DNA from: Terriglobales bacterium
Lineage (GTDB): Bacteria; Acidobacteriota; Terriglobia; Terriglobales; Acidobacteriaceae
Assembly (NCBI GenBank): GCA_030038475.1
Contig: JASHOU010000185.1
Coordinates: forward strand, 4,540-68,539
DNA length: 64,000 nt
Direction of reading: 5' to 3'
Program-made: the position numbers and the translations under genes
Notes under the pieces: model-generated
Database searches by the model: none
What the model was told of the DNA's origin: nothing
The model's input: the letters and a program-made list of their open reading frames with translations, nothing else
Part shown: piece after piece, positions 8,111 to 48,550 of the stretch
Position numbering within the stretch: position 1 is the first letter of the stretch
Layout: every line of letters starts with the position of its first letter

Positions 8111-8157
8111 CAGTTCTCAGTTCCCGCAAACTGTTCGTTTGAGAACCGAGAACTACG
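8111..8157. repeat. Heptamer-array hairpin (GTTCTCA / TGAGAAC) between htpX stop and moxR start
   Basis: CAGTTCTCAGTTCCCG - 14 nt - GAGAACCGAGAACTACG. The reverse complement of the left arm matches the right arm at about 12 of 15 positions. Confidence 0.7.
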
Positions 8158-9025
8158 AATTCGGCTGGAAAAATTCTGCCGGTCGTCCCGTCAACCGCTC
8201 GATGCGCTTAGCCGTCGGCGGATGCGTCGAGAACAGGTTGCCGAAGCTGAAGCCTCCGAGGAACGGTTGAATGATGAACAGGTGTGCGGTCGACGGGCTC
8301 GCCACCAGCGGCGCGCGGCGCGAATACGCATCGATCTTCGCCAACGCGCTGGCCAGCGCATAAGGATTGCCGGTCCAGTGAGCTCCGGTATCGTCGGCTC
8401 CATATTCGCGCGAGCGCGAAACGGCAAGCTGAATCAGTATGGCCGCGAGCGGAGCAAGAAAGATCATGATGATCGCGGCAACTCCGCCGCCTCCGCGCTC
8501 TTCGCGTTCACCCCGCATTCCGCCAAAGATCATGCCCCACTTGGCAACGGATGCGAGCCATGTAATCGCTCCCGCCAACGTTGCGGCGATGGAGCTGATC
8601 AGGATATCGCGATTGCGCACGTGGCCCAGTTCGTGCGCGATTACGCCTTCGAGTTCCTCATCGTTGAGCAGGTTGAGGATGCCTTGAGTTACGGCGACCG
8701 ACGCGTGTTGGGGATTGCGGCCGGTGGCGAAGGCATTAGGCGAATCCGTTGGGATGACGTAGACCTTGGGCGTGGGCAAACCGACCTTCTGCGCCAGTCG
8801 CTCGACGATATTGTAGACGCGCGGCAGATCTTCGCGGCTGACGGCCTGCGCGCGATAAGTGGCCAGCGCGATCTTGTCGGAGAAGAAATAGGAAATGAAA
8901 TTCATGACCGCGGCGAAACAGAGTGCCAGCAACATGCCGTTTTGGCCGCCCAAAGCGCGTCCTACCGCCATGAACAACAAAGTCATGACAGTAAGCAACA
9001 GCGTGGTTTTAAATACGTTGTTCAT
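8153..9025 (-). CDS. htpX: Zinc metalloprotease HtpX (M48 family)
   Basis: Multi-TM N-terminus, HELGHVRNRD zinc motif, and a C-terminal STHPPTAKRIERL motif. Confidence 0.9.
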   Translation of the reverse strand: MNNVFKTTLLLTVMTLLFMAVGRALGGQNGMLLALCFAAVMNFISYFFSDKIALATYRAQAVSREDLPRVYNIVERLAQKVGLPTPKVYVIPTDSPNAFATGRNPQHASVAVTQGILNLLNDEELEGVIAHELGHVRNRDILISSIAATLAGAITWLASVAKWGMIFGGMRGEREERGGGGVAAIIMIFLAPLAAILIQLAVSRSREYGADDTGAHWTGNPYALASALAKIDAYSRRAPLVASPSTAHLFIIQPFLGGFSFGNLFSTHPPTAKRIERLTGRPAEFFQPNS

Positions 9026-9094
9026 AATTGCCTCAGATTTTATCAGTCACTTTTATTTGATGTTGGAAACGGCGGTTTTGGCTCACGGGCAGTG

Positions 9095-9129
9095 CCCAGT
9101 TCTCAGTTCCCGGTTCTCAGTTCTCAGTA
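9095..9129. repeat. Five tandem heptamers (CCCAGTT CTCAGTT CCCGGTT CTCAGTT CTCAGTA) upstream of htpX
   Basis: Direct reading of the sequence. This is the same unit family as at 8111, 11706, 31223 and 48388. Confidence 0.8.
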
Positions 9130-9190
9130 AGACCGGAAGCGTTTGAGCGGACGGAAATTGGGACGTTCCCTTTAGCGATCATCCCTGTTC

Positions 9191-9226
9191 GCGCTTCAGC
9201 GCTCGCCCTGTTGGCGCTTCAGTGCC
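9191..9226. repeat. Pair of GC-stem/TTCA(TGAA)-loop mini-hairpins overlapping the 3' end and stop codon of the 491-aa gene
   Basis: GCGC-TTCA-GCGC (9191-9202) and GGCGC-TTCA-GTGCC (9213-9226). In gene sense they read ...GCACTGAAGCGCC...GCGCTGAAGCGC... = ...ALKRQQGER*. Confidence 0.6.
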
Positions 9227-10671: not shown

Positions 10672-10764
10672 TCAGGCTCCTGGACTCAATTGGCGCTTGA
10701 TACTTAATTCATAAGGCTACGCATGGATGCTAACTCCACCAGTGCCGGTCTCTCTCGGAACGGC

Positions 10765-11067
10765 CTACGCCAGAAGTTCTTGCGGCACATGCACGCGGCG
10801 GACTTTGATCTTGCCCTCGTCTTTGCGGGCCTGCGCAAGATCGTAGGCTATTTGCATCCGTAGCCAGGTTTCGGCGGTGCTGCCGAAAGCCTTCGAAAGC
10901 CGGATCGCCATCTCCGGGCTGATGCCCGATTTGCCGTGAATAATGTTGTTGAGGGTCTGGCGCGTAACGCCCAAGATCCTCGCCCCCTCCGTGACGGACA
11001 AGCCCAGCGGCTCAAGGCAGGCGCTACTGACGATGCGACCTGGATGGGCGGGGTTTTTCATCGGCAT
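10765..11067 (-). CDS. higA: HigA-type antitoxin (XRE-family HTH)
   Basis: PAHPGRIV...[51 protein letters not shown] is the classic HigA/VapI HTH. It lies 22 nt downstream of the toxin gene. Confidence 0.85.
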
Positions 11068-11089
11068 AGTGTTCTCCTCGTAGCCGGCC

Positions 11090-11368
11090 TTAGTGGTAAT
11101 CGATCAATTCAACATCAAATGCATCGTTTCCCTCGAACCGAAAAACGACACGCCAATTGGCTCGCACCGTTACGGACCAAAAGCCCTTCATGTCGCCCTT
11201 GAGCGGATGAAGGTGATAACCGGGGAGGTTCAGCTCCTGCGGGGACAGCGCGTCATCCAAGACAGTCAAGATTTCCTGCACTGTCTTGGCGAGATCCGGC
11301 CGGATTCCGCGACGGTCGTCATCTTCATACAGCCGCTTGAGACCGCGATGCTTAAAGCTTCTGATCAT
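11090..11368 (-). CDS. higB: HigB-type toxin (RelE/ParE superfamily, 'plasmid maintenance system killer')
   Basis: [18 protein letters not shown]....I.P........L..L.......[28 protein letters not shown]...D....DY.DYH pattern. The toxin-first gene order is characteristic of higBA. Confidence 0.85.
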
Positions 11369-11395: not shown

Positions 11396-11701
11396 TCACT
11401 TGTCACAATATCCTTTAGCCCTGGAAGTCAGACCCTGCTCCAGCCGCGCGATCTCGGCCATGATGGCGGCCGCTTCTTCTTCTAACGACGAGCGCATGGA
11501 TTGGTAGTCCGCGTCGGGAACTTTGCCGGCTTTGTATTCGAAATTCAGGTCGCGCAGGTTTTCGTAGACTGCTTCTTTGCGCTCGCGCAGATAGCTTAGG
11601 CGCGTCTTCTCTTCTCCGGAGTAGACTTCGCCTGGAAAAAAGAAAACGTAGTAGAGACAGGCGACAGTGAAGACTGCGCAGACGAAAAGGGTCATGTTCA
11701 T
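11396..11701 (-). CDS. Small single-TM protein with CcmI N-module-like coiled coil (hypothetical)
   Basis: N-terminal TM LFVCAVFTVACLYYVFFF followed by RLSYLRERKEAVYENLRDLNFEYKAGKVPDADYQSMRSSLEEE. Position is downstream of ccmF-ccmH. The family assignment is from memory of CcmI/CycH N-termini. Confidence 0.55.
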   Translation of the reverse strand: MNMTLFVCAVFTVACLYYVFFFPGEVYSGEEKTRLSYLRERKEAVYENLRDLNFEYKAGKVPDADYQSMRSSLEEEAAAIMAEIARLEQGLTSRAKGYCDK

Positions 11702-11705
11702 AACA

Positions 11706-11813
11706 GCTCTCAGTTATCAGTCTCAGTAAAAGCGGTTCTCAGTTGCTAGTTCTCAGTTCTCGGTAAATGCGGCTTTCGGCGTTGGGCTCTCGGCTTTGGG
11801 CTTTCGGCTCTTG
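11706..11813. repeat. Two adjacent tandem arrays (GTTCTCA-type, then six GGCTYTC heptamers) in the ccmH-downstream spacer
   Basis: 11706-11767: GCTCTCAGTTATCAGTCTCAGT...GGTTCTCAGTTGCTAGTTCTCAGTTCTCGGT. 11771-11812: GGCTTTC GGCGTTG GGCTCTC GGCTTTG GGCTTTC GGCTCTT. Confidence 0.8.
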
Positions 11814-11903
11814 ACACGCAAATCTCGCGCCAAGAGCATCGCGAGCGAAACTCTCGCCCAAAATATGGCACCAGCGAATCGGAGCATCCACGACACAAGG
11901 CGG

Positions 11904-15072: not shown

Positions 15073-15073
15073 A

Positions 15074-15192
15074 TGATTTTGTAACTTTCTGATTTGCAAT
15101 TTTGACGTTGGTTCCAATGCCGGTTTCTTGAGCGCCAGAATACCAGACTTTTACATTACCGAATTGCCAAATTGCAAAATTGCCAAATTTCC
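15074..15192. repeat. Mirrored AT-rich octamer arrays (AATTGC(C/A)A) in the divergent rhodanese/SET intergenic region
   Basis: Right array: ATTACCGA ATTGCCAA ATTGCAAA ATTGCCAA ATTTCC (15155-15192). The left side (15074-15116) contains the complementary GATTTGCAATTTTGACGTTGG. Confidence 0.65.
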
Positions 15193-15228
15193 GCGAGCAT
15201 GGATTTCGTAAATCCATCTTATAGAACG

Positions 15229-17907: not shown

Positions 17908-18624
17908 CTAAAGAGGCTCGTAGTATTTTTCCCCGGCGCAGGAGCGGCAGAGGATTTTGCCGTCCCGCAGAACTTCGCGGTGGAAGTTGATGCCTTCTCC
18001 GCAGCGGGAGCAGACGATGCGGTTGGACTTATAGCCTGGGAACTCTTCGGGAAGTAACTCGACTTTGACCCATTGGGTGGTGAATAAGTCGTCGTCGGAA
18101 AGTTCGCGGTAGGCGAGCATCTGCTGCTGGTTCTTGTTTTCGATTTCGGGATGGAGTTCGCGGGCGAGCGTTTTCGACGATTCTTTGGCGGCGACACGGA
18201 TGGCTTTATAGCGATGGTCCGAGGTCGCGACCTTCAGAGATGGGGACGATTGTCCCCCAGCGGCTAAAGCCGCATCCCTTCCGGTCGCTGACGGCACGAC
18301 TAAAGTCGTGCCCTTCCCGTTTTCGTCGATCTGCGAAGAAACGTGGGTGGCGAGGTCGACGAAGGTGGCGGCCATCTTTCCCCAGTCGCGGAATTTGAGA
18401 GCGCGCTTGCCGAGGCGGCATCCGGTGACGACGGCGATGGCATCGGTGGCGCAGCGGTCGATTTCGACGAAGGTGACAAGACGCTTGCGGTCTTTACCGC
18501 GCGGGTCGTCGATGCCGAGTTTGGCGAGGCCAAGCATAGCGAGGCGCACACCGAGAATTTGCCCGGCGCAGAGATGGCCGTGGGCCAACTCTGCTTGCCG
18601 AATAAGATCATCAATGGAAACCAT
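17908..18624 (-). CDS. FmdE-family protein with C-terminal zinc ribbon
   Basis: AELAHGHLCAGQILGVRLAMLG...VEIDRCATDAIAVVTGCRLGKR (FmdE/FwdE domain) and C-terminal CSRCGEGI...ILCRSC. The linker contains an in-frame triple-hairpin repeat. Confidence 0.8.
   Translation of the reverse strand: MVSIDDLIRQAELAHGHLCAGQILGVRLAMLGLAKLGIDDPRGKDRKRLVTFVEIDRCATDAIAVVTGCRLGKRALKFRDWGKMAATFVDLATHVSSQIDENGKGTTLVVPSATGRDAALAAGGQSSPSLKVATSDHRYKAIRVAAKESSKTLARELHPEIENKNQQQMLAYRELSDDDLFTTQWVKVELLPEEFPGYKSNRIVCSRCGEGINFHREVLRDGKILCRSCAGEKYYEPL
18242..18312. repeat. Triple perfect hairpin element inside the fmdE-like reading frame
   Basis: GGGGAC-GATT-GTCCCC (18242-18257), GCGGC-TAAA-GCCGC (18260-18273), GGCACGAC-TAAA-GTCGTGCC (18293-18312). 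Confidence 0.75.
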
Positions 18625-18628
18625 GATT

Positions 18629-18661
18629 GAGTAATTTTGTAATCGGGTAATTGTGTAATCT
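18629..18661. repeat. Octamer array (GTAATTTT GTAATCGG GTAATTGT GTAATC); contains the left copy of a 19-bp perfect inverted repeat
   Basis: 18634-18652 ATTTTGTAATCGGGTAATT is the exact reverse complement of 19411-19429. Confidence 0.8.
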
Positions 18662-18720
18662 AAGGAACGCTCGTGTTTCGCCAGTCGTTGGGCCGAAGGG
18701 AGAGCAGATCCTTCCGAATA

Positions 18721-19260
18721 CTATTCCGAACCGTTTTCCCACCAGCGATACTTCCTAACAAAGATTACCACCTCCCTCGGAGTCCTCTTGAACTTCGTAA
18801 GATCGAACTTTCTATTGCAGTGGTTATCACCCACCACTCCCGACGTACGAATCTCGTCCAGAGAAAACAAACCGGTGGAACATTGAATGCCACCTCCGGC
18901 ATAGGTGATTTGCAGGTCTAACAACTTGGACAGCCTTTGCCGAGAAACTGCTTCACGTTTGTCGCCGCTGTTACTGCTCTGATTCTCCGAAGGCGTGGAA
19001 CGAAGCTTTTCGTCGGGGAACAGCACCCTCCCATCATCGTCTGCGGTTCCTTGAAGAGGCATACCCTGTTCCACGATCGGCCTATGGGTATCAGGATTGA
19101 TTCGATACACTAAAACCCCGCGGCGTGGCACCGGCTTGCCATCTGTAGCGTTGATGAGTTGCACGGTAATGATAGGACTTCCTTGCTGCGCATGAGATGC
19201 TACAGCCACCAAACAGCAGAGTGCCGAAACTATCCAGTAAGACCTCATTGTGCGGCACAA
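18721..19260 (-). CDS. Hypothetical secreted protein, AT-richer than its surroundings
   Basis: Signal peptide MRSYWIVSALCCLVAVASHAQQ. I recognise no domain. Two hand-counted 100-nt samples give ~46% and ~51% GC, versus ~66% in a neighbouring fmdE sample. Confidence 0.55.
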   Translation of the reverse strand: MCRTMRSYWIVSALCCLVAVASHAQQGSPIITVQLINATDGKPVPRRGVLVYRINPDTHRPIVEQGMPLQGTADDDGRVLFPDEKLRSTPSENQSSNSGDKREAVSRQRLSKLLDLQITYAGGGIQCSTGLFSLDEIRTSGVVGDNHCNRKFDLTKFKRTPREVVIFVRKYRWWENGSE

Positions 19261-19359
19261 CTTCCGCTAAGGAAGCGAGTATACGGCTGTGCGATTGCGG
19301 AATTCCGAGTATTAATTACAAGCGATACGCTGCTTCGACCCGGGTGCAACGGATTCAAT

Positions 19360-19389
19360 GGTCCTTCGACTCCGCTTAGGATGACACGG
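19360..19389 (+). repeat. 'LRMT' element, copy 2 (GGTCCTTCGACTCCGCTTAGGATGACACGG)
   Basis: Same orientation and same core as 7031-7057. It is intergenic. Confidence 0.6.
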
Positions 19390-19397
19390 GTTGGGCA

Positions 19398-19446
19398 GTT
19401 TCAAATTGCAAATTACCCGATTACAAAATACTTAATTTCACAATCC
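19398..19446. repeat. AT-rich array containing the right copy of the 19-bp inverted repeat
   Basis: 19411-19429 AATTACCCGATTACAAAAT, starting 4 nt after the cysS stop region. Confidence 0.8.
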
Positions 19447-19449
19447 TCT

Positions 19450-20940
19450 CTACTTTCTACGCCATCTTACTCCGTCCTTCGTATTTTCCACGATGATACC
19501 CGCGTCGGTCAGCTCTTTGCGGAGTGCGTCGCTCGCCTTGAAGTTGCGCGATTTTCTGGCCGCTTCCATTTCGGAGAGCTTTTGGTTGATTTGCTCGTCG
19601 CTGAGCTGCGTGGAACCGGCGATCTCCAGTAACTCGGGGCTGATTTCCTTGGCTTTCTCCGTGCCTTCGGCTCGGGCCCAGTCGAGAATGGATTTCATCT
19701 TCGGCTGATCGTCGTCTTTCAGCACGCTGAAGATCTCGTCGAATTTCTCGAGCGTGGCGAGCAGCGCTTTGGCATCATCGTTGTGAACCTCGTCGGCATC
19801 GAGCGCGGTGTTGGCTTTGCGCAGCATGTCGAAGATCGCGCCCTGAGCTTCGGCGGTGTTGAGGTCGTCGTTCAGCGCGCTGGTGATTCGGGCGGCGGTT
19901 TCGCCGGCGAGCTGGGTGATGGCTGGGTTCGATCCCGCAGCAAATTGAGTGCTCGTCAGGCGAAAACGGAAGTTGCGCAGCTTTTCTACCGAGCTGGCGG
20001 CCGACTTCAATCCGTCGAAGGTGAAGTTCAGTTGATTGCGATACGGAACCTGCGTGAGCAGCCAGCGAATCGACGATGGCTTGTGGCCGCGCAGCACGAG
20101 GTCGCGGAGGGTGAAAAAATTGCCGAAGCTCTTCGACATCTTCTGGCCTTCGACGAGCAGAAAACGCACATGAAACCAGTCGTGCGCAAGCTGCTGCCCG
20201 CTGAGCGACTCCGACTGCGCGATTTCGTTTTCATGATGCGGAAAAATCAAATCTTCGCCGCCGGCGTGCAGGTCGAAGCTGGGGCCGAGCTCCTCCATTG
20301 ACATTACTGAGCACTCGATGTGCCAGCCGGGACGGCCGGGCCCGATCGCCGTCTCCCAGAAAGCCTCGCCGGGTTTCGGAGCTTTCCATAGCGCGAAATC
20401 GCGGGCGCTGTCTTTTTCGTATTCGTCGACGTCGACGCGCGCACCGTCGGTCATGCCGGCGAAATCTTTTTTTGAGAGCTTGCCGTAGGCGGGAAATTTC
20501 GCGATGCGGAAATAATAAGAGCCGTCGTCGGTGCGATACGCGAAACCTTTCTTTTCGAGTTGGGCAATGAAATCGGCCATCTCGTCGATGTGCTCGGTGG
20601 CGCGGACGAGGAGTGGCTTTTCGATGTTCAGAATCGCGGAATCTTCGAGAAACGCCTGGGTGAATTTGGCGGTATATTGCTGCACGGTGACGCCGTCGCG
20701 TGCGGCGTTGCGGATAATCTTGTCGTCGACGTCGGTGATGTTCATGACGTAGCGGACATCGTATCCGCTCTGGCGCAGAAAACGGTAAAGAAGATCGACG
20801 GCGATGAAGGTGCGGAAATTGCCGATGTGGCCGTAGTCGTAGACGGTGGGTCCGCAGGCGTACATGCGAACGCGGTTGGCGTCGATGGGATGGAAGTCTT
20901 CTACTTTTCCAGAGAGCGTGTTATAGAGGCGGAGGGGCAT
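19450..20940 (-). CDS. cysS: Cysteine--tRNA ligase
   Basis: MPLRLYNTLSGKVEDFHP...MYACGPTVYDYGHIGN (HIGH), ...KMSKS. The start is taken at the internal ATG (20938-20940) that gives the canonical N-terminus. The 71-codon upstream extension in the track looks spurious. Confidence 0.95.
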   Translation of the reverse strand: MPLRLYNTLSGKVEDFHPIDANRVRMYACGPTVYDYGHIGNFRTFIAVDLLYRFLRQSGYDVRYVMNITDVDDKIIRNAARDGVTVQQYTAKFTQAFLEDSAILNIEKPLLVRATEHIDEMADFIAQLEKKGFAYRTDDGSYYFRIAKFPAYGKLSKKDFAGMTDGARVDVDEYEKDSARDFALWKAPKPGEAFWETAIGPGRPGWHIECSVMSMEELGPSFDLHAGGEDLIFPHHENEIAQSESLSGQQLAHDWFHVRFLLVEGQKMSKSFGNFFTLRDLVLRGHKPSSIRWLLTQVPYRNQLNFTFDGLKSAASSVEKLRNFRFRLTSTQFAAGSNPAITQLAGETAARITSALNDDLNTAEAQGAIFDMLRKANTALDADEVHNDDAKALLATLEKFDEIFSVLKDDDQPKMKSILDWARAEGTEKAKEISPELLEIAGSTQLSDEQINQKLSEMEAARKSRNFKASDALRKELTDAGIIVENTKDGVRWRRK

Positions 20941-21019
20941 GCGCGTTGGACGAAGGGATATTCTATCGCGGGAGAGCCGCCAGCTTCGAGCCGCGAGCTT
21001 CGAGCCACGAGTTGAGACG

Positions 21020-21646
21020 ATGAACGAAAAAAACAGCACTCTGCTGTTGACAGTAGATTTGACGGGCACGTTTGTGTTTGCGCTGGAGGGCGCAATGACC
21101 GCCATCCAGTTTGAACTCGATTTTTTCGGCGTGATGGTGCTGTCGTTTGCCACGGCGCTGGCGGGCGGAGTGATCCGCGATCTGCTGATTGGCGCGGCCC
21201 CGCCGGCGTCTCTGCGCGACTGGCGTTATGCGGCCACGGCGTTCAGCGCCGGAGCGGGCGTGTTTTTTTTTCATCATTATTTGTTGCAGATTCCGAATGC
21301 GGCGATTATCGGGCTGGATGCGGCCGGGCTGGCGCTGTTTGCCATGGCGGGAACGGAAAAGGCGCTGGCTTACAAGATGCATCCGTTTATTGCCGTGTTG
21401 TTGGGCACGATCACGGGCGTGGGCGGGGGCACGGTGCGCGATATTTTTCTGGCGCGCGTCCCTAGTGTTCTGCAGAGCGACGTTTATGCGACGGCGGCGA
21501 TGGCGGGAGCGTTGGTGATGGTGGTGGGGCGAAAAGCGGGATTGTCTCCGGCAGCGGCCGCGGGAGTGGGTGGAACAGTATGTTTTCTGCTGCGCGTGAT
21601 TGCGGTGTGGCAGCACTGGAACCTGCCGCGTGTGACCGCGCCGTAG
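21020..21646 (+). CDS. TRIC-family cation channel (UPF0126/YadS-like)
   Basis: Two UPF0126 repeats: DLTGTFVFALEGAMTA...GGVIRDLLIG and GLDAAGLALFAMAGTEKA...GVGGGTVRDIFL. The start is taken at MNEKNS. Confidence 0.85.
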   Translation: MNEKNSTLLLTVDLTGTFVFALEGAMTAIQFELDFFGVMVLSFATALAGGVIRDLLIGAAPPASLRDWRYAATAFSAGAGVFFFHHYLLQIPNAAIIGLDAAGLALFAMAGTEKALAYKMHPFIAVLLGTITGVGGGTVRDIFLARVPSVLQSDVYATAAMAGALVMVVGRKAGLSPAAAAGVGGTVCFLLRVIAVWQHWNLPRVTAP

Positions 21647-29920: not shown

Positions 29921-31220
29921 ACCATCCTGTATCTTTCCGCCTGACAATTGCGATTGCAGCATCGCCGCCGCTTTCCGGCCACAGCGCAGTGATTCGGCCA
30001 TCGAACTCCGCGGCTGAACTGGCCGGCACGGGATCGCGATCGAGAATCTCGAAGGCGCGGAGACCATCGCGCCCGGCGTCGCCGTTCTGCGAATCGCGAT
30101 TTTCCGAATCATCATCCTCCGAAATCAGCAACTGCGTGCCAGAACCGCAACTGGAGTGAAGCGCCGCCAGTTCACTTCCCGGTCTTGAGCTGCGGATCAA
30201 CTGGTCCGTCATACCATCCACCAGATGCAGCGATCCATCGACGCCCGCGAAGGCCCACAGCGCATAGTTCGACCGTGGAAGCGCGGCCGCCGAGTAGAAC
30301 GATGGAACGTTGGAAATTTTTCCAATGCCGGGCGAGAGAACTCCGGTGAAGAAGTTGCGCGACGCGGCATAAAAGGCGCGCACGGAATTGTCGTCCGCGG
30401 TCAGCGGCCACGGGTCGTCGCTATCGGCGCAGGCCAGTGCGAGCGGCGAGTTGGTGGTCGAGCGGCAGACGGTTCCGGGAAGGTAAAGGTCGAAAAGACG
30501 ATCGCGGCGAATCAGCAAACGTCCGCGCAGATCGCGGGGGAAGATGCGCGAGTGAACGATGGGCAGGGAGGCTTCCAGTTCCCAGCGTGCGGCTGGATTT
30601 GCAGCCTGATGACGATAGATGACGACCGCAGCTGGTTCGAGGACGAGCAGGCGCGGGCTTCCTGACATATCACCCCGGGACATATCGATGAGCGCGGCGT
30701 CGAGCATGGGCTGCTCCTGCGCCAACAACAGCATTGTCTTTAGAACGAGTGGCGGTGTGGCCGCGAAGGATGTTTCTGCTGGCGGCCTCGGTAACGAGAC
30801 CAGCGCAACTTTCTGCTCGTCGGACCCTACGGTTATCACGGCCGTCCAGACGTATTCGCGCAGGCTTTCGGAAAGAACGACTGCGATGGTTCCCGCCGAC
30901 TGGTCGGCTTTCGCGGCGTGCACGCCTTCGATCTGCAACTCGTCTACGAGCGCGGTGCGCACTTCGCGTACGGATTGTTCGTCGAGCGACGAGCGGTTGG
31001 TGATTTCAAGAACGAACGTTCCGGAACCCGAAGCGGCGGCGATTTTGTTCGCCAGTTGGCGCGCCGTATCTGACAGCGGCGAAGCGCATAAAAAAGATGG
31101 AGAATGCAAGACCGCAAGCAAGAGCAAAGTCAGCCAAGCCAGCCGCAGACTGCTCGATGTTCGCGCTCGCATGTGTGGAATGGGCTGATTATAGCGCGTG
31201 GTTGATGGGGATTTGCTCAT
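29883..31220 (-). CDS. Hypothetical secreted protein, first gene of the SBP-HK-NtrC operon
   Basis: Signal-like LRLAWLTLLLLAVLHSPSFLCASP. I recognise no domain, though the C-terminal half has a beta-propeller-like feel (WAFAGVDGSLHLVDG). An alternative start is M17 at 31172. Confidence 0.6.
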   Translation of the reverse strand: MSKSPSTTRYNQPIPHMRARTSSSLRLAWLTLLLLAVLHSPSFLCASPLSDTARQLANKIAAASGSGTFVLEITNRSSLDEQSVREVRTALVDELQIEGVHAAKADQSAGTIAVVLSESLREYVWTAVITVGSDEQKVALVSLPRPPAETSFAATPPLVLKTMLLLAQEQPMLDAALIDMSRGDMSGSPRLLVLEPAAVVIYRHQAANPAARWELEASLPIVHSRIFPRDLRGRLLIRRDRLFDLYLPGTVCRSTTNSPLALACADSDDPWPLTADDNSVRAFYAASRNFFTGVLSPGIGKISNVPSFYSAAALPRSNYALWAFAGVDGSLHLVDGMTDQLIRSSRPGSELAALHSSCGSGTQLLISEDDDSENRDSQNGDAGRDGLRAFEILDRDPVPASSAAEFDGRITALWPESGGDAAIAIVRRKDTGWYEAFRISVSCGN

Positions 31221-31222
31221 AG

Positions 31223-31301
31223 GTCAGTTCTCAGTTCTCAGTTCCCAGTGAAACCGCCGTTCAGATTTTTCTGGGAACTGGGAACCGCGAACTGAGAACT
31301 C
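31223..31301. repeat. Heptamer-array hairpin (GTTCTCA / TGAGAAC) between the SPFH gene stop and the next gene's start
   Basis: Reverse complement of 31223-31248 = CTGGGAACTGAGAACTGAGAACTGAC. Right arm 31271-31301 = CTGGGAACTGGGAACCGCGAACTGAGAACTC. The loop is 22 nt. Confidence 0.8.
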
Positions 31302-31310
31302 ACCCCGAAG

Positions 31311-32639
31311 CTATTGCTGCGGCTTTCCATCCTCTACATCGTCCGACTGGCTTACGTGATTTGTGGCGCCGATGCCGCGCAGTACGTCATTGGTGAAGAA
31401 AAATTTGCCATCGGCCGGGACCATCATGATCTGCAATTTATCGGAAAGGCGCTCGGCGACGATCTTGTTGATGAGCAGCGGATTCTGCTTCAGGATCGCG
31501 CTTTCGCTGGTCATGCGCTCGGCGTCGGCAGCGGCGGTCAGACGGATGCGCTCAGCTTCGGCCTGGGCCAGCAGTTTGCGGCGCTCCATCTCGGCTTTGC
31601 TGTCGATGAGTTTGGCTTCGCCGGCGGCCTCGGCGTTCTTGACGGTCGCTTCTTTGCGCGCCTCGGCTTCGAGCTTCGATTGCTCAATCTGCTTCTGCTT
31701 CAGCGGCAGCGTGTATTGCATGGCATCGGACTCGCTTTTGGCCTGCAGCACGCGAACGGCGGCTTGCCCTTCAGCTTGTTTTACCTGTTGAACTTTGTTT
31801 GCCTCGGCGTCGGCTTCGGCGATTTTCACCTGCTTCTGGTGAAGCTCGGTTTCGACTCCCATGCGGTCGTTTTCCTGTTCTTTGAGGAGCAGAGATTCGA
31901 GACCTTTAGCATATTCCTCGGGAAGTTCGATGTCGCGCAGCATGACTTCTTTCACCACGATGCCGTCGGCGGCGAGGCGTTGGCGAATGATGTCCGCGGA
32001 GCGCTGGCGAATCTCTTCGCGCCTGGCGGAAAAGACTTCGCGCACAGTGTAGTTCGGCACCAGTTCACGCCAGGCCGTGGCTACGACGGGCGGGACAATT
32101 TCCTTTTCCAGCGGCTGCGGCAGATTGGCTTGAATGTAGTCGAGACGCTTGGGATCGATTTGATAACGAACCGTGATCGCAAGGCCGAGTGTCAAGCCTT
32201 CTTTAGCTTGCACGTTCAACGGTTCGCCTTTCGCTGCGCCTTTTGCGGGTCCATCTTCGCCGAGGCCGGTGGTGAAGAGCTGGTCGCGGGTGTTGAACAG
32301 CTCGACCCGCTCAACCATCGGCGCAACGAAGTGCACGCCCGGATATAAGATTCCGGGCAACGTGCCTCTGGTCTGACTGACGCGCACGCCGGCCATTCCA
32401 CTGGGCACGATTACGATGCCGGCGGAAACGAGCAGCGGAGCCCAGGCCAGCATCGCGAAGGCAACGGACGTTCGCCAGCGCATGGCCGGCGCTTGGCCAG
32501 GCGCGCCGGCTTCGGGGTCGGGATGCAGACGCTTACGCTGCCAGGCGATTAAGAGGTAAGAGTCATAGCCAAGAATTGCGGCGGCGACCACGAACATCGC
32601 AATCCCCGCACTCAACAACAGATCCTTCAGCAAAAGCAT
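31311..32639 (-). CDS. SPFH/band-7 (prohibitin/flotillin-like) membrane protein with long C-terminal coiled coil
   Basis: N-terminal TM LLSAGIAMFVVAAAILGY. SPFH core is GVRVSQTRG...GVHFVAPMVERVELF...REVFSARREEI. The C-terminus is EA(K/R)-rich coiled coil. AGGAA precedes the ATG at 32639. Confidence 0.85.
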   Translation of the reverse strand: MLLLKDLLLSAGIAMFVVAAAILGYDSYLLIAWQRKRLHPDPEAGAPGQAPAMRWRTSVAFAMLAWAPLLVSAGIVIVPSGMAGVRVSQTRGTLPGILYPGVHFVAPMVERVELFNTRDQLFTTGLGEDGPAKGAAKGEPLNVQAKEGLTLGLAITVRYQIDPKRLDYIQANLPQPLEKEIVPPVVATAWRELVPNYTVREVFSARREEIRQRSADIIRQRLAADGIVVKEVMLRDIELPEEYAKGLESLLLKEQENDRMGVETELHQKQVKIAEADAEANKVQQVKQAEGQAAVRVLQAKSESDAMQYTLPLKQKQIEQSKLEAEARKEATVKNAEAAGEAKLIDSKAEMERRKLLAQAEAERIRLTAAADAERMTSESAILKQNPLLINKIVAERLSDKLQIMMVPADGKFFFTNDVLRGIGATNHVSQSDDVEDGKPQQ

Positions 32640-33828: not shown

Positions 33829-34664
33829 TGTCAGACGAGGAACGGCGCGAGCCCGGGAAAGAAGATCAAGCTGGCGCAGAAAAAGATGCCGCTGCGCCGC
33901 CGGACGCGGCGGCGAGCGCTGAAACCGAGAACGTCTCCATCGAAGCGACCGTCGAAAAAATAGAGATGGTTGCGGACGAAGCTACACCGGAGGAAACAAC
34001 AGCAGAAGAGCCGGAAGGGATTCGAGCGGCGTATGAGCATCCGCTGGCGATTCGAATTACACACTGGGTGAACGCCATCAGCTTGTTCGTGATGATTACC
34101 AGCGGATTGCGGATTTTTCGCGCCTTCCCCAGCTTCGGCCCGAAGATTCCGGAAAAAGTTCTGCTCGATATTCCCAAGTCGCTCACGCTTGGCGGCTGGC
34201 TGGGCGGAGCCTTGCAGTGGCATTTCACCTTCATGTGGCTCTTCGCCGCGAGCGGCACGTTCTACGTGGCGTACCAACTTATCAGCGGGCACTACCGCAC
34301 TCTGTTATTCACGCCCCGCGACATTCTCGGCGTCTGGCCGATGGTCCGGCACTATTTTTTCTTTGGGCCCAAACCGCCGGCGACGGGTCAATACAATTCT
34401 CTGCAAAAACTGGCTTACACGTCGACCATTGGATTGGGCGCGTTGTCGCTGCTCACCGGGATCGTCCTGTACAAACCCGTCCAGTTTTCGTGGCTGGCAT
34501 TTCTGTTCGGAGGGTTTCATCTCACGCGCATCTGGCATTTCGCGGCCATGTGCGGATTCCTGGCATTCATCCCCGGGCACCTTATCATGGTCGCAGTGCA
34601 CGGCTGGCAAAATTTCTATTCCATGCTCGTAGGATGGAAGCGCGATCCAGAGTATCAGGAGTAA
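33828..34664 (+). CDS. Cytochrome b (Ni/Fe-hydrogenase b-type / PhsC-like) membrane subunit with acidic N-terminal extension
   Basis: HPLAIRITHWVNAISLFVMITSGLRIF plus further TM helices carrying His residues. ATG overlaps the upstream TGA by 1 nt (TGATG), and GGAGG lies 7 nt upstream. Confidence 0.8.
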   Translation: MSDEERREPGKEDQAGAEKDAAAPPDAAASAETENVSIEATVEKIEMVADEATPEETTAEEPEGIRAAYEHPLAIRITHWVNAISLFVMITSGLRIFRAFPSFGPKIPEKVLLDIPKSLTLGGWLGGALQWHFTFMWLFAASGTFYVAYQLISGHYRTLLFTPRDILGVWPMVRHYFFFGPKPPATGQYNSLQKLAYTSTIGLGALSLLTGIVLYKPVQFSWLAFLFGGFHLTRIWHFAAMCGFLAFIPGHLIMVAVHGWQNFYSMLVGWKRDPEYQE

Positions 34665-34673
34665 AGGGAAGCC

Positions 34674-34758
34674 CAGGTGTCAGGGTTCAGGTCTTAGGCT
34701 TCAGGAAAAATGGTTCGCCCGGCCTGAGTGATAAATACGGCCTAAGACCTGACACCTG
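34674..34758. repeat. Array hairpin (CAGGNNN units) between convergent genes; probable bidirectional terminator
   Basis: Left: CAGGTGTCAGGGTTCAGGTCTTAGGCTTCAGG. Right: ...CCTAAGACCTGACACCTG. The complementary blocks are CCTAAGACCTGA and ACACCTG. Confidence 0.65.
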
Positions 34759-34764
34759 TCCGAT

Positions 34765-35031
34765 CTAGTGCTTCATGTTGTCGTCGGACTTCGTCTCATC
34801 TTTCTTCGTGGTGTCTTTCTTCGTGGTGTCGGCGGTTTTCTTTTTCGCCGTTTTCTTGGATTTCTTCTGTGTCTTGGACGTGTCCTTCGCCATGTCGTCC
34901 TTCTTCATGGTGTCGCTCTTCATCTGATCGTTCTGCATGTTGTCCTGCTTCATGGCATCGCCCGATTGAGCGAATGCCAGCGTGCCGAACAGCATGGCTG
35001 TGGACAACAGTTTTGTAGCAATATTCTTCAT
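34765..35031 (-). CDS. Small secreted Lys/Asp-rich pentapeptide-repeat protein (MXKDX-type)
   Basis: Signal peptide MKNIATKLLSTAMLFGTLAFAQ, then MKQDN-MQNDQ-MKSDT-MKKDD-MAKDT and a K/T-rich tail. GGAG precedes the ATG. Confidence 0.75.
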   Translation of the reverse strand: MKNIATKLLSTAMLFGTLAFAQSGDAMKQDNMQNDQMKSDTMKKDDMAKDTSKTQKKSKKTAKKKTADTTKKDTTKKDETKSDDNMKH

Positions 35032-36409: not shown

Positions 36410-36419
36410 AGGTTGGCCA

Positions 36420-36546
36420 GGTCTCAAAGTTTCAACGTTTCAAGGTTTCAGAGTTTCAGCGTGCCACGATCTAGTGCACAATTTTTGCCGGCCTCCATGA
36501 AACCTTGCTACTCTGAAACCTTGAGACCTGAACCCTTGAAACTTTG
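36420..36546. repeat. Octamer-array hairpin (GTTTCA(A/G)N / complement) between the type III PKS and FAD-oxidoreductase genes
   Basis: Left: GGTCTCAAAGTTTCAACGTTTCAAGGTTTCAGAGTTTCAGCG. Right: CATGAAACCTTGCTACTCTGAAACCTTGAGACCTGAACCCTTGAAACTTTG. Confidence 0.8.
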
Positions 36547-36553
36547 CTTCTGC

Positions 36554-37609
36554 CTACCATTGCAGCAAGACGAATTCCGCGCAGAATCCTGGACCCATCG
36601 CCGCCAGCAAGCCGAGCGTGCCGGGTTCGGGCCGGCGATTTTTCATCACTTCTTCGAGCACAACCAGCACCGAGGCCGACGATAAGTTGCCAGTCCGGCG
36701 CAAACACTGCCAAGAAACGTCAAGTTCGCCGTTCTCTAAACCAAGCGCGTCGGCTGTGGCCTCCAGAATCTTCGGACCGCCGGTATGCAATACCCAGGCG
36801 CCGATGTCAGCGCGAGTCAATCCCCGGCTGGCGAGAAACTCGTCGACATTGCCGGCGAGGTTCTTGCGAATCAGGTCCGGCAGTTCGCGGGAGAGAACAA
36901 TGCGAAAGCCTTTTTCCGATATGTCCCAGCCCATCATCTCTTCGGTATCGGGATAGAACACGGAACTGGTTGCCAGTATGTTTGGTCCGGAAAGTCCAAC
37001 AGCAGCATCAGTGCCGGCAACAATCGCGGCGGCTGCGCCGTCGCCGAACAGGCCCGACGAAATCAGATTGGCCATCGATAGATCCTGGCGCTGCAGCGTG
37101 AGGGAGCAGAGTTCGACCGCCAGCACCACCGCGAATTGATCCGGATATGCGCGCACATAATCGGCCGCGCGTGAAATTGCCGCCGCGCCTGCCACGCAGC
37201 CCAAGCCAAAGATGGGAACACGGCGGATGTTTCGGCACAGCCCCATGCGGTTGATCAGAAGCGCGTCCATTGAGGGACTGCAGATGCCGGTGACAGAAGT
37301 AAAAATAAAAGCGCCGAGATTCTGGCCGTGCAAGCTGGCGTCTGCCAGCGCCCCTGCGATTGCCTTCTCTCCCAATTCCTTGGCGGTGCGAATCCAGTGC
37401 CGGTTGAACTCGCCCCAGGTTTTTATGCCGGGATACACTTCTTTTGGCAGCGACAGGAATCGTCCGTCCACGCCGGAGTTGCGATGCAATCGGCGCAGCA
37501 CCTGGGGACTCTCGATGCCATCGCTCCAATACTCCTGGAGAGCGTTGAGAAGTGTTTCCTGCGAGTAGTAGTGTTGGGGAAACGCGCTGGCTGCGCTGAC
37601 AATTCGCAT
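36554..37609 (-). CDS. Type III polyketide synthase (chalcone/stilbene synthase family)
   Basis: Catalytic triad contexts are present: GLGCVAGAAAISRA (Cys), WVLHTGGPKILE (His), GNLSSASVLVVLEE (Asn). The 351-aa length is typical. Confidence 0.9.
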   Translation of the reverse strand: MRIVSAASAFPQHYYSQETLLNALQEYWSDGIESPQVLRRLHRNSGVDGRFLSLPKEVYPGIKTWGEFNRHWIRTAKELGEKAIAGALADASLHGQNLGAFIFTSVTGICSPSMDALLINRMGLCRNIRRVPIFGLGCVAGAAAISRAADYVRAYPDQFAVVLAVELCSLTLQRQDLSMANLISSGLFGDGAAAAIVAGTDAAVGLSGPNILATSSVFYPDTEEMMGWDISEKGFRIVLSRELPDLIRKNLAGNVDEFLASRGLTRADIGAWVLHTGGPKILEATADALGLENGELDVSWQCLRRTGNLSSASVLVVLEEVMKNRRPEPGTLGLLAAMGPGFCAEFVLLQW

Positions 37610-38911: not shown

Positions 38912-39008
38912 TAGGACGGGCGTAGGCCTATTCCGTGGTTGCGTGGCTCCCCTATCTCTGGTAGAACTCTGCACTGAAGAAATCAACAATTTTTTTTCTG
39001 GAGGAACT

Positions 39009-39407
39009 ATGAAGAGCAAGTTATCTCTGAAGTTATGTCTGACGGTCGCAGCGGCGCTGCTGGCGCTTAGCGCATTCTCCTACGCGCAAGCCGGCGATGA
39101 CATGAAGAAAGCTGCCGACGACACCGGCAAAACCACCAGTACAGCCGCGAAGACGACGGCGCACGCCACCAAGACTGCGGCCAAGGACACCGGCAAGGCC
39201 ACGGCAACCGCTACCAAGGACACCGGCAAAGCCACAGAAACCGGCGCCAAGGATACAGGCAAAGCCACGGAAAAAGCCGCCGACAAAACCGGCGATGCCA
39301 CGAAGACGGCCGCGAAGGATACCGGGCACGGCGTGAAAAAAGGCACTAAGGCAGTGGGCCACGGCGTAAAAAAGGGTGCCGAGAAAACGGGCGATGCGGT
39401 GAAGTAG
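39009..39407 (+). CDS. Small secreted Lys/Thr-rich repeat protein (KDTGKAT repeats)
   Basis: Signal peptide MKSKLSLKLCLTVAAALLALSAFSYAQA, then four (A/T)(A/T)KDTGKAT(A/E) units and two GHGVKKG units. GGAGGA lies 5 nt before the ATG at 39009. Confidence 0.7.
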   Translation: MKSKLSLKLCLTVAAALLALSAFSYAQAGDDMKKAADDTGKTTSTAAKTTAHATKTAAKDTGKATATATKDTGKATETGAKDTGKATEKAADKTGDATKTAAKDTGHGVKKGTKAVGHGVKKGAEKTGDAVK

Positions 39408-47084: not shown

Positions 47085-47290
47085 CCTGCATTCGATTCTA
47101 TGACTGATGGCTGCGACTTCGCGCCCATTGGCATCGTTGCCGACCACTCAAAATAGAAAACTTCTAAGCTGCTGATTCGCAGCGGGATATTGACGGTGAG
47201 TCTCGGCTTTTCCAGGTTCGAGTTTTTCTCCAACTGTGGTACTCTAGCTACACGTTGGAGTCTTCCTTCTCCGAGGCACATCCAATTCCT

Positions 47291-48370
47291 ATGCGACATT
47301 GGCGGCAAATTTTGCGTTTTTTGGCGGCGATACAGCTGCTTCCCGCACTCGAAAGCGGCGAGGAAACGCTCGTCGGTGGCCAGGCCGTGCTGGAAGGCGT
47401 GATGATGCGTTCTCCGCACGCCTGGGGCATCGCGGTGCGCAAGCCGTCGGGCGAAATTGTTACCCACAGCGAACCGCTGGAGCGGCCCTCCGAACATCAC
47501 AAATGGATGGGTTGGCCCGTCGTGCGGGGCGTGATGACGCTTGGCCACGCCATGACTCTTGGCTTTCGCGCGCTGAAGTTTTCCGCGAATGCGGCGCTGG
47601 AGGAAATCTCGGCCAACGATGCCGCAACGAAAGATTCCGCGACCGCTGGGTCTGCGAATCAAGTTCCCGCCAAGAAGTTTGAGATCACCGGCTGGATGGC
47701 GGCATTGAATATGGCGTTTTCCATCGCCTTCTTCATTTTCATGTACAAATACCTGCCGTTGCTAGCGACGACCGAATTAAAGAAGGCAAATCCAATCTTC
47801 GGTCAGCAGGTGATGTTCAATCTGGTGGACGGGCTGATTCGCATCACATTGTTCCTGCTGTTTGTGTGGGGCGTCTCGCTCTGGAAGGACATTCGCCGCG
47901 TTTACGAATACCACGGGGCCGAGCACAAGACGGTTTTCGCTTTCGAAAATGGCGATCCGCTCCAGACCGGCGCGGTGCAGAAATATTCAACGTATCATCC
48001 GCGCTGCGGGACCAGCTTTCTGATGACAGTGATGATTATCTCAATGTTCGTCTACATGGCGATTCCGGTGCAGACTTTCTGGGCTCGCTTTGGCATTCGC
48101 ATCGCGCTGCTGCCTCTAATTGCGGGCGTTTCCTATGAGATTATCCGCTTTGCCGCCAGGCGTTTTTCGGCAAGGAATTCCTCGACCGCGAACAGTTCCG
48201 CAACTGCGCCTGGCTTCTCGCTGTTTGCGTTGATGACGGCTCCCGGCCTGTGGCTGCAGCGCATCACCACGCAGCCTCCAGATGACCGCCAGGTCGAATG
48301 CGCCATCGTCGCCCTCGACTCCGCCATGGCTCTGGAAAAGCAGCGCGGCGGCGAATTAGTAATTGCGTAG
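47291..48370 (+). CDS. DUF1385-family membrane protein (commonly linked to prfA/prmC)
   Basis: VGGQAVLEGVMMRSP...EYHGAEHK...HPRCGTSF motifs. Position is upstream of prfA-prmC. The alternative TTG start is at 47255. Confidence 0.8.
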   Translation: MRHWRQILRFLAAIQLLPALESGEETLVGGQAVLEGVMMRSPHAWGIAVRKPSGEIVTHSEPLERPSEHHKWMGWPVVRGVMTLGHAMTLGFRALKFSANAALEEISANDAATKDSATAGSANQVPAKKFEITGWMAALNMAFSIAFFIFMYKYLPLLATTELKKANPIFGQQVMFNLVDGLIRITLFLLFVWGVSLWKDIRRVYEYHGAEHKTVFAFENGDPLQTGAVQKYSTYHPRCGTSFLMTVMIISMFVYMAIPVQTFWARFGIRIALLPLIAGVSYEIIRFAARRFSARNSSTANSSATAPGFSLFALMTAPGLWLQRITTQPPDDRQVECAIVALDSAMALEKQRGGELVIA

Positions 48371-48387
48371 CGGTTCCCACCGCGCAT

Positions 48388-48550
48388 AGTTCCCAGTTCC
48401 CAGTTCTCGGTTCTCGGTTCTCAGTAAAACCCCTACAATAAGATTTGTGAGAGCGAGTACGGAACTGATTCATGCGCGATGCCGCTGTTTTTTGCGGTCT
48501 TCTGAATTGCGGACTGGAAACTGAGAACTGTAACCGGGAACTGAGAACCG
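48388..48550. repeat. Split heptamer arrays: (GTTCYCA)n at 48388-48425 and (TGAGAAC)n at 48514-48550, ending 2 nt before the prfA ATG
   Basis: AGTTCCCAGTTCCCAGTTCTCGGTTCTCGGTTCTCAGT ... 88 nt ... CTGGAAACTGAGAACTGTAACCGGGAACTGAGAACCG. Confidence 0.8.

Follow-up and report, generated by a model that had tools for sequence, protein, structure and literature searches.

Tandem arrays in the intergenic spacers

The 64,000-nt stretch of DNA analysed here (the window) comes from a Terriglobales bacterium (GenBank assembly GCA_030038475.1, contig JASHOU010000185.1, positions 4,540 to 68,539) and carries, among other genes, htpX and moxR, cysS, a type III polyketide synthase gene and prfA. The genes it contains, TonB-type receptors with CarboxypepD_reg domains among them, are in keeping with an acidobacterium, its base composition is 58% G+C and its prfA is 86–93% identical to that of 80 metagenome loci. 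Approximately one in four of its intergenic spacers (about 10 of the about 36 that are at least 60 nt long) is built from tandem arrays of 7–8-nt units, commonly paired as the two arms of an inverted repeat, and these elements are the subject of this report (table 1).

Tandem Repeats Finder (TRF) identified 12 arrays in the window with a period of 7 or 8 and at least 2.7 copies (9097–9128, 11735–11761, 11770–11809, 15162–15189, 18639–18660, 20982–21005, 31224–31249, 31271–31300, 36424–36458, 36498–36546, 48388–48425 and 48519–48548); in 30 first-order Markov simulations of the window the average was 0.47 and no run had more than 2. Starts and genes were curated by hand with Pfam and homology, and on the resulting map all 12 arrays are intergenic, in a window with an intergenic share of 11.2%. 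The array at 20982–21005 was reassigned from coding to intergenic because the true cysS start is 20940; it lies upstream of both this start and that of a PF03458 gene at 21019. The long cysS open reading frame (ORF) 19450–21153 has a spurious 71-codon N-terminal extension, the conserved MPLRLYNTL placing the start at 20940. These results bear out the first-pass annotation of this DNA, which had described 7–8-nt tandem arrays in the spacers; the TRF arrays lie at sites on its list, apart from the array at 20974–21011, which it lacked.

The commonest unit is best written GAACTGA, with the complement TCAGTTC. Five loci had been said to share one unit, and the 10-mer AACTGRGAAC indeed occurs 13 times in the window, confined to those five spacers. 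TAACTGA is present in the window as two single words only, one of them at 11710. Only about a third of the genes in the window have a strong Shine–Dalgarno (SD) match, and SD pairing is weak at the array-adjacent genes (+0.6 to −5.6 kcal/mol). Rfam at gathering thresholds gave zero matches in the window, which contains no rRNA.

Predicted hairpins

Folds were computed in the sense of the flanking genes and compared with shuffles (z-scores). Five sites are predicted to form stems, which span 20–50 bp: a 34-bp stem at 31218–31313 (−49 kcal/mol, z = −6.7), a stem of approximately 45 bp at 36410–36556 (−64 kcal/mol, z = −7.6), a long-range stem around an 88-nt loop at 48368–48558 (−70 kcal/mol, z = −4.9), a 20-bp stem at 8054–8156 (z = −2.4) and the site at 34662–34770 (z = −3.2 and −2.5). 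The predicted folds bury the bases just upstream of the downstream start codon, in agreement with the earlier suggestion that the start region is occluded, and the pairing in several registers that had also been proposed was seen with an inverted-repeat finder. A further pair of arms, at 18629–18661 and 19398–19446, belongs to a GTAAT octamer family; the two have in common an exact inverted 18-mer, TTTTGTAATCGGGTAATT (19411–19428 on one side), and enclose a loop of 736 nt.

A complementary array had been claimed for most loci. This stands for the five folding sites and for the arms at 18629 and 19398, but the arrays at 9090–9128, 11702–11767 and 11770–11812 are solo, without a partner, and 15073–15201 folds no better than shuffles (z approx. 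0). At the latter site 15162–15189 is the sole clear array, and its proposed left partner at 15076–15105 gave no significant fold (z = 0.2 and 0.6). The region 11699–11830, which holds two of the solo arrays, is unusually unstructured and folds worse than 198 of 200 shuffles (z = +1.9).

Layout and polarity of the arms

In co-directional spacers the elements have a common layout: stop codon, 0–8 nt, 5′ arm, loop of 15–120 nt, 3′ arm, start codon. Of the two arms the 5′ one is the more tightly anchored: in approximately 32 of 36 spacers no more than 8 nt separate it from the upstream stop, with the TAG stop often belonging to its first unit, and the 3′ arm comes equally close to the start in about half.

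The arms are also polar. With strict arms, the Acidobacteriota loci and the window together contain 25 (TCAGTTC)n…(GAACTGA)n pairs and 0 in the reverse order, and local alignment yielded 40 pairs in which the pyrimidine-rich (Y) arm precedes the purine-rich (R) arm versus 0 with R before Y. When duplex energy is the criterion, a partner at most 250 nt upstream exists for 81 of the 119 purine arrays and a downstream one for three, and in other phyla an upstream partner was present for only 7 of 43; by alignment, 40 of the 100 elements in the census have an upstream inverted partner. The regularity extends to other units. Among hairpins with periodic arms of any unit, the T-rich arm is 5′ in 19 and 3′ in one, and in all of the eight or more unit families that contain CAG or CTG, CAG is in the 5′ arm. 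It is not universal, as a Chloroflexota cassette has the reverse order.

The first-pass annotation had read this pattern as an orientation relative to the downstream start. The distances from array to start that it gave are correct at all six starts (3 nt at 31220, 2–4 at 48553, 1–5 at 11701, approx. 9 at 36409, 58 at 8053 and 70 at 9025), and the purine arm is always on the start side. However, a Y arm–loop–R arm layout is its own reverse complement, so a purine arm beside the start is automatic for complete hairpins; the real rule is the ratio of 40 to 0, a strand-symmetric polarity and not an orientation to the downstream start. Solo arrays obey the polarity in 37 of 49 cases: Y arrays outnumber R arrays by 23 to 9 after stop codons, and R arrays outnumber Y arrays by 14 to 3 before start codons, a count to be taken with caution because a purine array, with TGA in all three frames, draws called starts just behind it. 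A pyrimidine array is open in all frames and can therefore be swallowed by an extended ORF. The polarity is, tentatively, best explained by selection at the level of the family, whereby only elements with purine-rich, start-compatible gene-facing ends spread to start-ended spacers.

Unit families in related genomes

The 21-mer GAACTGRGAACTGRGAACTGR was scanned against one genome per species and has at least 120 matching stretches. Among the 120 matches listed, 86 are from Acidobacteriota, mostly Terriglobales, Acidobacteriaceae and Candidatus Sulfotelmatobacter, while the non-Acidobacteriota are mainly Bacteroidota, Planctomycetota and Verrucomicrobiota. Over approximately 1.1 Mb of related loci (numbered here with the prefix L) period 7 is dominant, with 333 TRF rows versus 45 for period 8. 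Some units of the window had been described as locus-specific, but they recur in other genomes: the GTAAT arms match arms in three other genomes at 83–94% identity (94% to the arms in L046, L075 and L109), AAACCTTG, AAGACCT and others recur in other Terriglobia loci, and so do units like GGTTTCAA and CAGGTCT of the window. The GTAAT arms form short-loop hairpins in L075 and L109 and flank a gene between nuoF and nuoG in L046 and L214–L221. The non-GAACTGA units contain CAG/CTG more often than by chance (31 of 80, versus 17 ± 3.4 expected).

The units are thus recurring sequence families. Structural selection had been deduced from a conserved structure with freely varying sequence, an argument that therefore fails; the pairing tests described below were negative as well. 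What the window samples is a real, abundant and lineage-typical repeat system of Terriglobia. In the literature covered, no description of repeat elements of this kind in Acidobacteria was found, and a literal search for the repeat sequence matched only an unrelated human paper.

Cassettes with PF05635 genes

The elements come as short-loop hairpins, as in the window, and as long-loop cassettes. PF05635 is the 23S rRNA intervening-sequence protein (S23p), a four-helix bundle related to bAvd, and the long-loop cassettes of relatives encode PF05635 proteins (Pfam E-values 4e-38, 2e-35 and 2.5e-15). Inverted arrays flank the PF05635 gene in seven of seven independent contexts (phoU–phoB, comM-like, Transglut_core2, L044, nuoF–nuoG, DUF1385–prfA and a Chloroflexota locus), four of which share GAACTGA-family arms and a conserved internal leader. 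At phoU–phoB, a recurrent site of PF05635 cassettes in relatives, the arms in L017 are the same but enclose an unrelated loop of 85 nt, and there is no PF05635 gene. The nuoF–nuoG cassette, whose arms are 94% identical to the GTAAT arms of the window, persists together with these arms across proteins diverged to 78% identity. These PF05635 cassettes resemble rRNA intervening sequences (IVSs) placed in mRNA spacers.

In the window there is no PF05635 gene, in any array element or elsewhere, and tblastn for PF05635 remnants in the long-loop element 18625–19449 found none. Two of the cassettes in other genomes have features of their own. In L215 (775–1000) the 5′ arm of the nuoF–nuoG PF05635 cassette is triplicated, with the GTAAT copies split by a repeated segment of approximately 45 nt. 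The Chloroflexota PF05635 locus, from a metagenome-assembled genome (L102, 5900–6600), employs GAACYGA/TCAGTTC units; (GAGAACC)n lies upstream of the gene and (CAGTTCT)10 downstream, the reversed order, and a normal AAGGAG SD sequence follows the arrays before the next gene.

Turnover at orthologous sites

Among 80 orthologues the DUF1385–prfA spacer occurs in three states: a window-type hairpin with a conserved TA(C/A)AAT in its loop, a GTAG-headed inverted doublet resembling repetitive extragenic palindromes (REP), and a PF05635 cassette with (GTCGTTN)n…(NAACGAC)n arms. The states are interleaved on a neighbour-joining prfA tree that is poorly resolved and star-like, with all sequences 14–24% from the window, so that repeated gain and loss are not separable from recombination. 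The prfA–prmC spacer (L121–L200) ranges from 11 to 837 nt among close relatives. It contains heptamer hairpins with ATTGCAG/AGGTCAG units, arrays of GGTCGTT, further palindromic repeats and small genes that have been inserted, and a GTGGTGAAATAG box immediately ahead of prmC is conserved. At a finer scale, otherwise identical contigs differ by exactly one 7-nt unit, and arm lengths vary widely at the orthologous phoU site (for example, Y10/R2 versus Y2.5/R6).

The GTAG-headed doublets (GTAGAGACGCGGCTTGCCGCGTCTC … GAGACGGGGCAAGCCCCGTCTCTAC), which resemble the REP doublets known as REPINs, lie 260 nt upstream of prfA in L121, L124, L129–L132, L146 and others, and further doublets are found at L066 4423–4512 and L133 5942–6019. 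The window has one degenerate half copy, TAGAGACGGAGCAAGCCC, at 61559–61576.

Relation to known repeats

The first-pass annotation did not recognise these arrays as REP/BIME, ERIC, CRISPR or a classical MITE. They match no Rfam family, but close kinds have been described (PMC2670836, PMC4679880 and PMC12721329), and the elements are heptamer hairpins like the short tandemly repeated repetitive (STRR) elements or like IVSs, not a new category. The 7-bp STRR repeats of filamentous cyanobacteria form a hairpin between the co-transcribed genes hupS and hupL, for which transcript stability or translational coupling was suggested (PMC2670836). Like the window elements, they are tandem 7-nt units in intergenic DNA with a hairpin between co-directional genes (in Terriglobia and the window, 27 of 35 classified hairpins are in co-directional spacers); they differ in phylum, base composition (58% G+C here) and units (GAACTGA/TCAGTTC here). 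The STRR units CCCCAGT and CAACAGT contain a CAG core, as is found here. Strict Y-to-R polarity, stop/start anchoring and PF05635 cargo are documented here for Terriglobia.

In the 5′ untranslated region (5′UTR) of Haemophilus influenzae hmw1A, a left arm of (ATCTTTC)n pairs with a purine-rich right arm, and RNase III, which is also required for repeat-number change, cuts this hairpin and thereby raises expression (PMC12721329). The features in common with the window are a pyrimidine heptamer 5′ arm, a purine-rich 3′ arm before the start, a long imperfect stem and a variable repeat number. However, hmw1A is one virulence locus, in which only one arm is repeated and its G-rich partner is not, whereas in Terriglobia both arms are arrays, there are approximately 10 sites per 64 kb and the neighbours are housekeeping genes.

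Classical 23S rRNA IVSs are bounded by stems, are excised by RNase III and in some cases contain an S23p ORF; in Coxiella, RNase III cuts the terminal stem of the IVS, which is 28 bp long, and the IVS also has an S23p ORF and, in the stem region, GACAGAT heptamers that vary in number between strains (PMC4990558). Terminal inverted repeats, a long stem and (in relatives of the window only) an optional PF05635 ORF are shared between the Terriglobia elements and the rRNA IVSs of Leptospira and Coxiella. The latter are inserted in helix 25 or 45 of 23S rRNA, whereas the Terriglobia sites are all between protein-coding genes, and unlike ORF-bearing IVSs the window elements carry no PF05635 gene.

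TAACTGA repeats, described from marine Beggiatoaceae, cyanobacteria and Bacteroidetes, lie in intergenic DNA, pointing forward and a few nt upstream of SD-less starts, with stop codons in all three frames, and a Beggiatoa genome has 169 direct sets versus one inverted set (MacGregor 2015, PMC4679880). They match the commonest unit of the window at six of seven positions and are likewise forward and near starts without SD; they differ in that the unit begins with T, not G, and in being almost all direct, while Terriglobia arrays mostly have an upstream inverted array.

REP elements, bacterial interspersed mosaic elements (BIME) and REPINs are, like the window elements, abundant extragenic imperfect palindromes, often just after stops, but the window arms are tandem arrays without a GTAG head. 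We rejected a REPIN reading for the window, where the GAGACG…CGTCTC motif of relatives has 0 matches, and found no REP-associated tyrosine transposase (RAYT, IS200/IS605-like) among its genes. Clustered regularly interspaced short palindromic repeats (CRISPR) were likewise rejected, the units being 7–8 nt and contiguous and not 25–40-nt repeats with unique spacers. Motif search and unit layout, together with the lack of an Rfam match, thus agree with the earlier view that the arrays are neither REP/BIME nor CRISPR. Integron attC sites, whose core sites run 5′-RYYYAAC…GTTRRRY-3′ with an intI gene nearby, were discarded in view of the order (GTT… first, …AAC last), the lack of an integrase and the housekeeping nature of the flanking genes. 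Of the features of miniature inverted-repeat transposable elements (MITEs), inverted repeats are present, and no consistent direct duplication flanks the arms in the inspected spacers. The Y array was also considered as the source of a −35 box (TTCTCA) to go with a TAAAAT or TACAAT −10 box, an idea that we dropped because the 7n+1 spacings (8, 15 and 22 nt) do not fit 17 ± 1.

A broader unification, possible if somewhat doubtful, is that heptamer-armed inverted repeats and PF05635 genes form one widespread element class, residing in rRNA helices (as IVSs) and in mRNA spacers. The ORF-less derivatives would be STRR, the TAACTGA repeats and the Terriglobia hairpins; the four-helix-bundle protein would bind or act on the arrays, and RNase III would process the stems. 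This is suggested by the flanking arrays in all seven PF05635 contexts, including the Chloroflexota one with its GAACYGA/TCAGTTC units, by the occurrence of the same arms with and without the gene at one orthologous site, by the heptamers in the Coxiella IVS stem and by the enrichment of a CAG core among the unit families.

A model for the hairpins and its alternatives

The sequence comparisons show how these elements are built, their polarity, the families to which they belong, their turnover at orthologous sites, their copy-number polymorphism and their link with PF05635. We give a probability of roughly 0.5 to the reading that they are intergenic inverted repeats of Terriglobia, in several families, with slippage-prone 7–8-nt arrays as arms and a stem that buries the leader and is of a size suited to RNase III. 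Given the folds and the Haemophilus, Coxiella and cyanobacterial precedents, the hairpins probably sequester the downstream leader and are probably cut by RNase III; transcription through both arms, the cleavage and any effect on expression are inferred. In the most likely mechanism, on transcripts that read through or span an operon, the 5′ arm, rich in pyrimidines, would pair with the purine-rich 3′ arm to give a stem of 20–50 bp, burying the leader and the bases just before the downstream start codon and presenting a substrate for RNase III. Cleavage by this enzyme would free the 3′ arm as an unusually unstructured, SD-poor and A/G-rich leader, as would a ribosome that melts the stem while terminating at the stop codon next to it. 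Gain or loss of one unit would change the arm length, by which expression could be tuned.

The elements abut the starts of essential genes, in the window that of prfA and in relatives those of nuoG and phoB. An action on RNA would make them a major level of operon organisation, hitherto undescribed, in Terriglobia, which are among the most abundant soil bacterial groups, and unit-number polymorphism would be a tunable, mutation-prone expression setting for many genes; such repeat-number tuning is shown experimentally for one Haemophilus adhesin only. The PF05635 link offers a handle on two puzzles, the purpose of bacterial heptamer repeats and the role of the intervening-sequence protein. If inert, the arrays still break assemblies and mislead the calling of start codons, since the pyrimidine arm is stop-free in all frames and the purine arm has stops in all three.

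Several results weigh against a role of the hairpins in sequestering leaders. There was no positive sign of selection on pairing itself in two tests: stem mismatches on the sense strand of co-directional spacers showed no bias (G·U 14 versus A·C 13), and the arm mismatch fraction was 0.080 for an arm's own partner versus 0.086 for arms of other loci (p = 0.44), both tests, which ought to reveal such selection, being of limited power because near-identical units pair in many registers. The second result shows no arm-specific covariation. Compensatory change was suggested by one locus, L133, where the arms match perfectly including a variant unit, but as a general pattern it found no backing in the statistics. 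At prfA, the TACAAT in the hairpin loop, kept in orthologous spacers, is probably the −10 box; prfA's own transcript would then carry the 3′ arm alone, and the main transcript may lack the 5′ arm. Approximately 40% of the window arrays, and 60 of 100 in the census, are partnerless at the alignment threshold. Finally, the spread over spacer types resembles the background (60 co-directional, 12 divergent and 12 convergent observed versus 60, 11.4 and 12.6 expected), which makes a dedicated 5′UTR device unexpected.

The main rival, which we consider unlikely, is that the arrays are purely selfish or neutral repeat DNA, arising by slippage and inverted duplication or spreading in the manner of MITEs or REPINs into tolerated gaps and expanding until they meet coding sequence; no RNA role would be selected, and polarity would come only from the purging of pyrimidine arrays that lie next to start codons. 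This explanation stays alive because the selection tests were negative, with neither G·U bias nor arm covariation, and because the spacer-type distribution is close to the background. It is also consistent with the quick turnover, in which unrelated repeat elements alternate in one spacer, with the one-unit copy-number polymorphism and with the widely unequal arm lengths at the orthologous phoU site. It fits poorly with the retention of the nuoF–nuoG cassette and its arms in an essential operon despite protein divergence to 78% identity and of the prfA hairpin across lineages with diverged loops; no consistent target-site duplications were found in the inspected spacers and no transposase among the window genes, and a stem of −49 to −64 kcal/mol that ends at −1 of a start is hardly neutral for translation.

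Alternatively, the purine arrays could be the functional part, as a reiterated single-stranded platform close before starts for a ribosome-associated or RNA-binding protein of the S1, Csp or CsrA type or for SD-independent initiation, a role that has been put forward for the Beggiatoaceae TAACTGA repeats, with the pyrimidine arms secondary. We judge this distinctly unlikely, even though the unit is one base from TAACTGA (itself a unit at 11710), whose repeats lie forward and just upstream of SD-less starts (PMC4679880). The excess of solo R arrays before starts (14 versus 3), the (NAACGAC)n arrays that abut the prfA ATG in other lineages, the weak SD pairing at array-adjacent genes and the unstructured solo R region also point this way. 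But 40–68% of Terriglobia arrays have a complementary partner, compared with 169 direct sets and one inverted in Beggiatoa, and solo Y arrays, placed after stops, are equally common. Moreover, the unit sequences differ so greatly among families that there is no single binding word, and elements occur between convergent genes too (34674–34758).

It seems very unlikely that the arms serve at the DNA level, as terminal inverted repeats for a protein (possibly PF05635 or a putative recombinase) that moves the cassettes, the short hairpins being cargo-less derivatives or landing pads. Such mobility would account for the presence of the same PF05635 cassette, with its conserved internal leader and the same arms, in at least four unrelated contexts, for the same arms with and without cargo at phoU–phoB and for GTAAT arms conserved between genomes with differing cargo; mobility of rRNA IVSs was proposed by Ralph and McClelland (cited in PMC4990558). 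Among the genes of the window, however, none encodes a transposase, an integrase or a RAYT, no consistent target-site duplication was seen in the inspected spacers, and most close PF05635 homologues are orthologous, vertically inherited copies. No catalytic activity is known for PF05635 proteins.

A role as terminators or as REP-like 3′-end stabilisers that shield the upstream gene from 3′–5′ exonucleases is highly improbable: although the 5′ arm follows the stop by 0–8 nt in approximately 32 of 36 spacers, the stems have high stability, convergent genes flank one element and REP elements sit at comparable positions, the terminator option of the first-pass annotation founders on a scan that scored no array hairpin and on the lack of a T-tract behind any stem, many elements lie inside apparent operons (nuoF–nuoG, htpX–moxR) where termination would be harmful, and solo arrays are unable to form a barrier.

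Individual elements and neighbouring features

Table 1. Array elements of the window, with their surroundings and the evidence for each (coordinates are window positions).
Positions	Strand	Feature	Surroundings and remarks	Evidence
8108..8158	-	Short GAACTGA-family hairpin, approx. 2 units per arm, 20-bp stem	Overlaps htpX stop codon (8153–8155); 58 nt upstream of moxR start 8053	Sequence, folds, Pfam of flanking genes
9090..9128	-	Solo array, 4.6 units, GAACTGA in htpX sense	70 nt upstream of htpX start 9025; no complementary partner; fold z = −1.5, no arm pairing	TRF
11702..11767	-	Solo purine-rich arrays (GAACTGA, TAACTGA, GAGACTG units)	Reach up to ATG at 11701	Sequence, TRF, fold
11770..11812	-	Second heptamer array, 5.7 copies, no partner	GGCTYTC on + strand; GAAAGCC/GAGAGCC in gene sense	TRF, sequence
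15162..15189	+	AATTGCCA octamer array, 3.5 copies	10 nt upstream of SET-domain gene start 15199	TRF, folds, Pfam
18629..18661	-	3′ arm (gene sense) of long-loop GTAAT octamer-family element	Ends 4 nt before FmdE-gene ATG at 18624	Sequence, inverted 18-mer
19398..19446	-	5′ arm (gene sense) of the same GTAAT long-loop element	Begins 3 nt after cysS stop codon at 19450	Sequence, inverted 18-mer
20974..21011	+	Extra array, 7/14-nt period (GAGCCGCGAGCTTC)	In 78-nt divergent spacer between cysS and PF03458 (glycine-transporter family) gene	TRF, sequence, Pfam
31222..31304	-	Complete GAACTGA-family hairpin	Fills 90-nt spacer from SPFH-gene stop (31311) to ATG 31220; stem takes in positions −1 to −4 of start codon	Folds, inverted-repeat finder
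34674..34758	.	CAGGTCT/AGACCTG-unit hairpin	Flanked by convergent genes, one for cytochrome b561 (stop 34664), the other for a small secreted protein rich in Lys (stop 34765); hairpin not followed by a T-tract	Folds, sequence, Pfam
36418..36546	-	Octamer-arm hairpin, GGTTTCAA (5′) and TTGAAACC (3′)	Fills spacer from type III polyketide synthase gene stop (36554) to FAD-monooxygenase start (36409)	Folds, inverted-repeat finder
48388..48425	+	5′ arm (AGTTCYC)5.4 of prfA-upstream hairpin	Follows small conserved hairpin 48371–48383, itself directly after DUF1385-gene stop	TRF, fold, orthologues
48426..48513	+	Loop of prfA-upstream hairpin	TACAAT at 48434–48439, kept as TA(C/A)AAT in orthologous spacers	Orthologous spacers
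48514..48550	+	3′ arm, GAACTGA-type units, of prfA-upstream hairpin	prfA ATG 48553 confirmed by conserved RF1 N-terminus in 80 orthologues	Fold, orthologues

The small hairpin 48371–48383 upstream of prfA is CGGTTCCCACCGC; at the same position L121–L200 mostly have CGGTGCCCACCGC, whatever element comes next. The loop of the GTAAT element holds an ORF (18721–19260, minus strand) for a protein of 179 amino acids with a signal-peptide-like N-terminus and no Pfam match; it has a low codon-model score and sits in the lowest-G+C part of the window (0.549). A dispersed motif, CCTTCG(C/A)(T/C)TCGCT(C/T)AGGATGACA, occurs in spacers at 7033–7056 and 19361–19386 of the window and also in L076 and L103, one copy thus lying inside the long-loop element 18625–19449. 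The window has a PhoU-domain gene of its own (6220–6981, plus strand), with convergent moxR next to it, and the spacer between them holds only a GGATGACA motif.

Among the protein-coding neighbours, the convergent partner of the hairpin at 34674–34758 (34768–35031, minus strand) encodes an 88-residue secreted protein rich in Lys, Asp and Thr that is built on 15-nt repeats. Elsewhere, ORF 38943–39407 (plus strand) contains in-frame 33/66-nt repeats at 39165–39325 that yield an Ala/Lys/Thr-rich protein (AKDTGKATE…) with no Pfam match. The array-preceded ORF 11396–11701 is followed closely downstream by genes for a HigB-like toxin (PF05015) and an HTH_3 antitoxin, at 10765–11368 on the minus strand.

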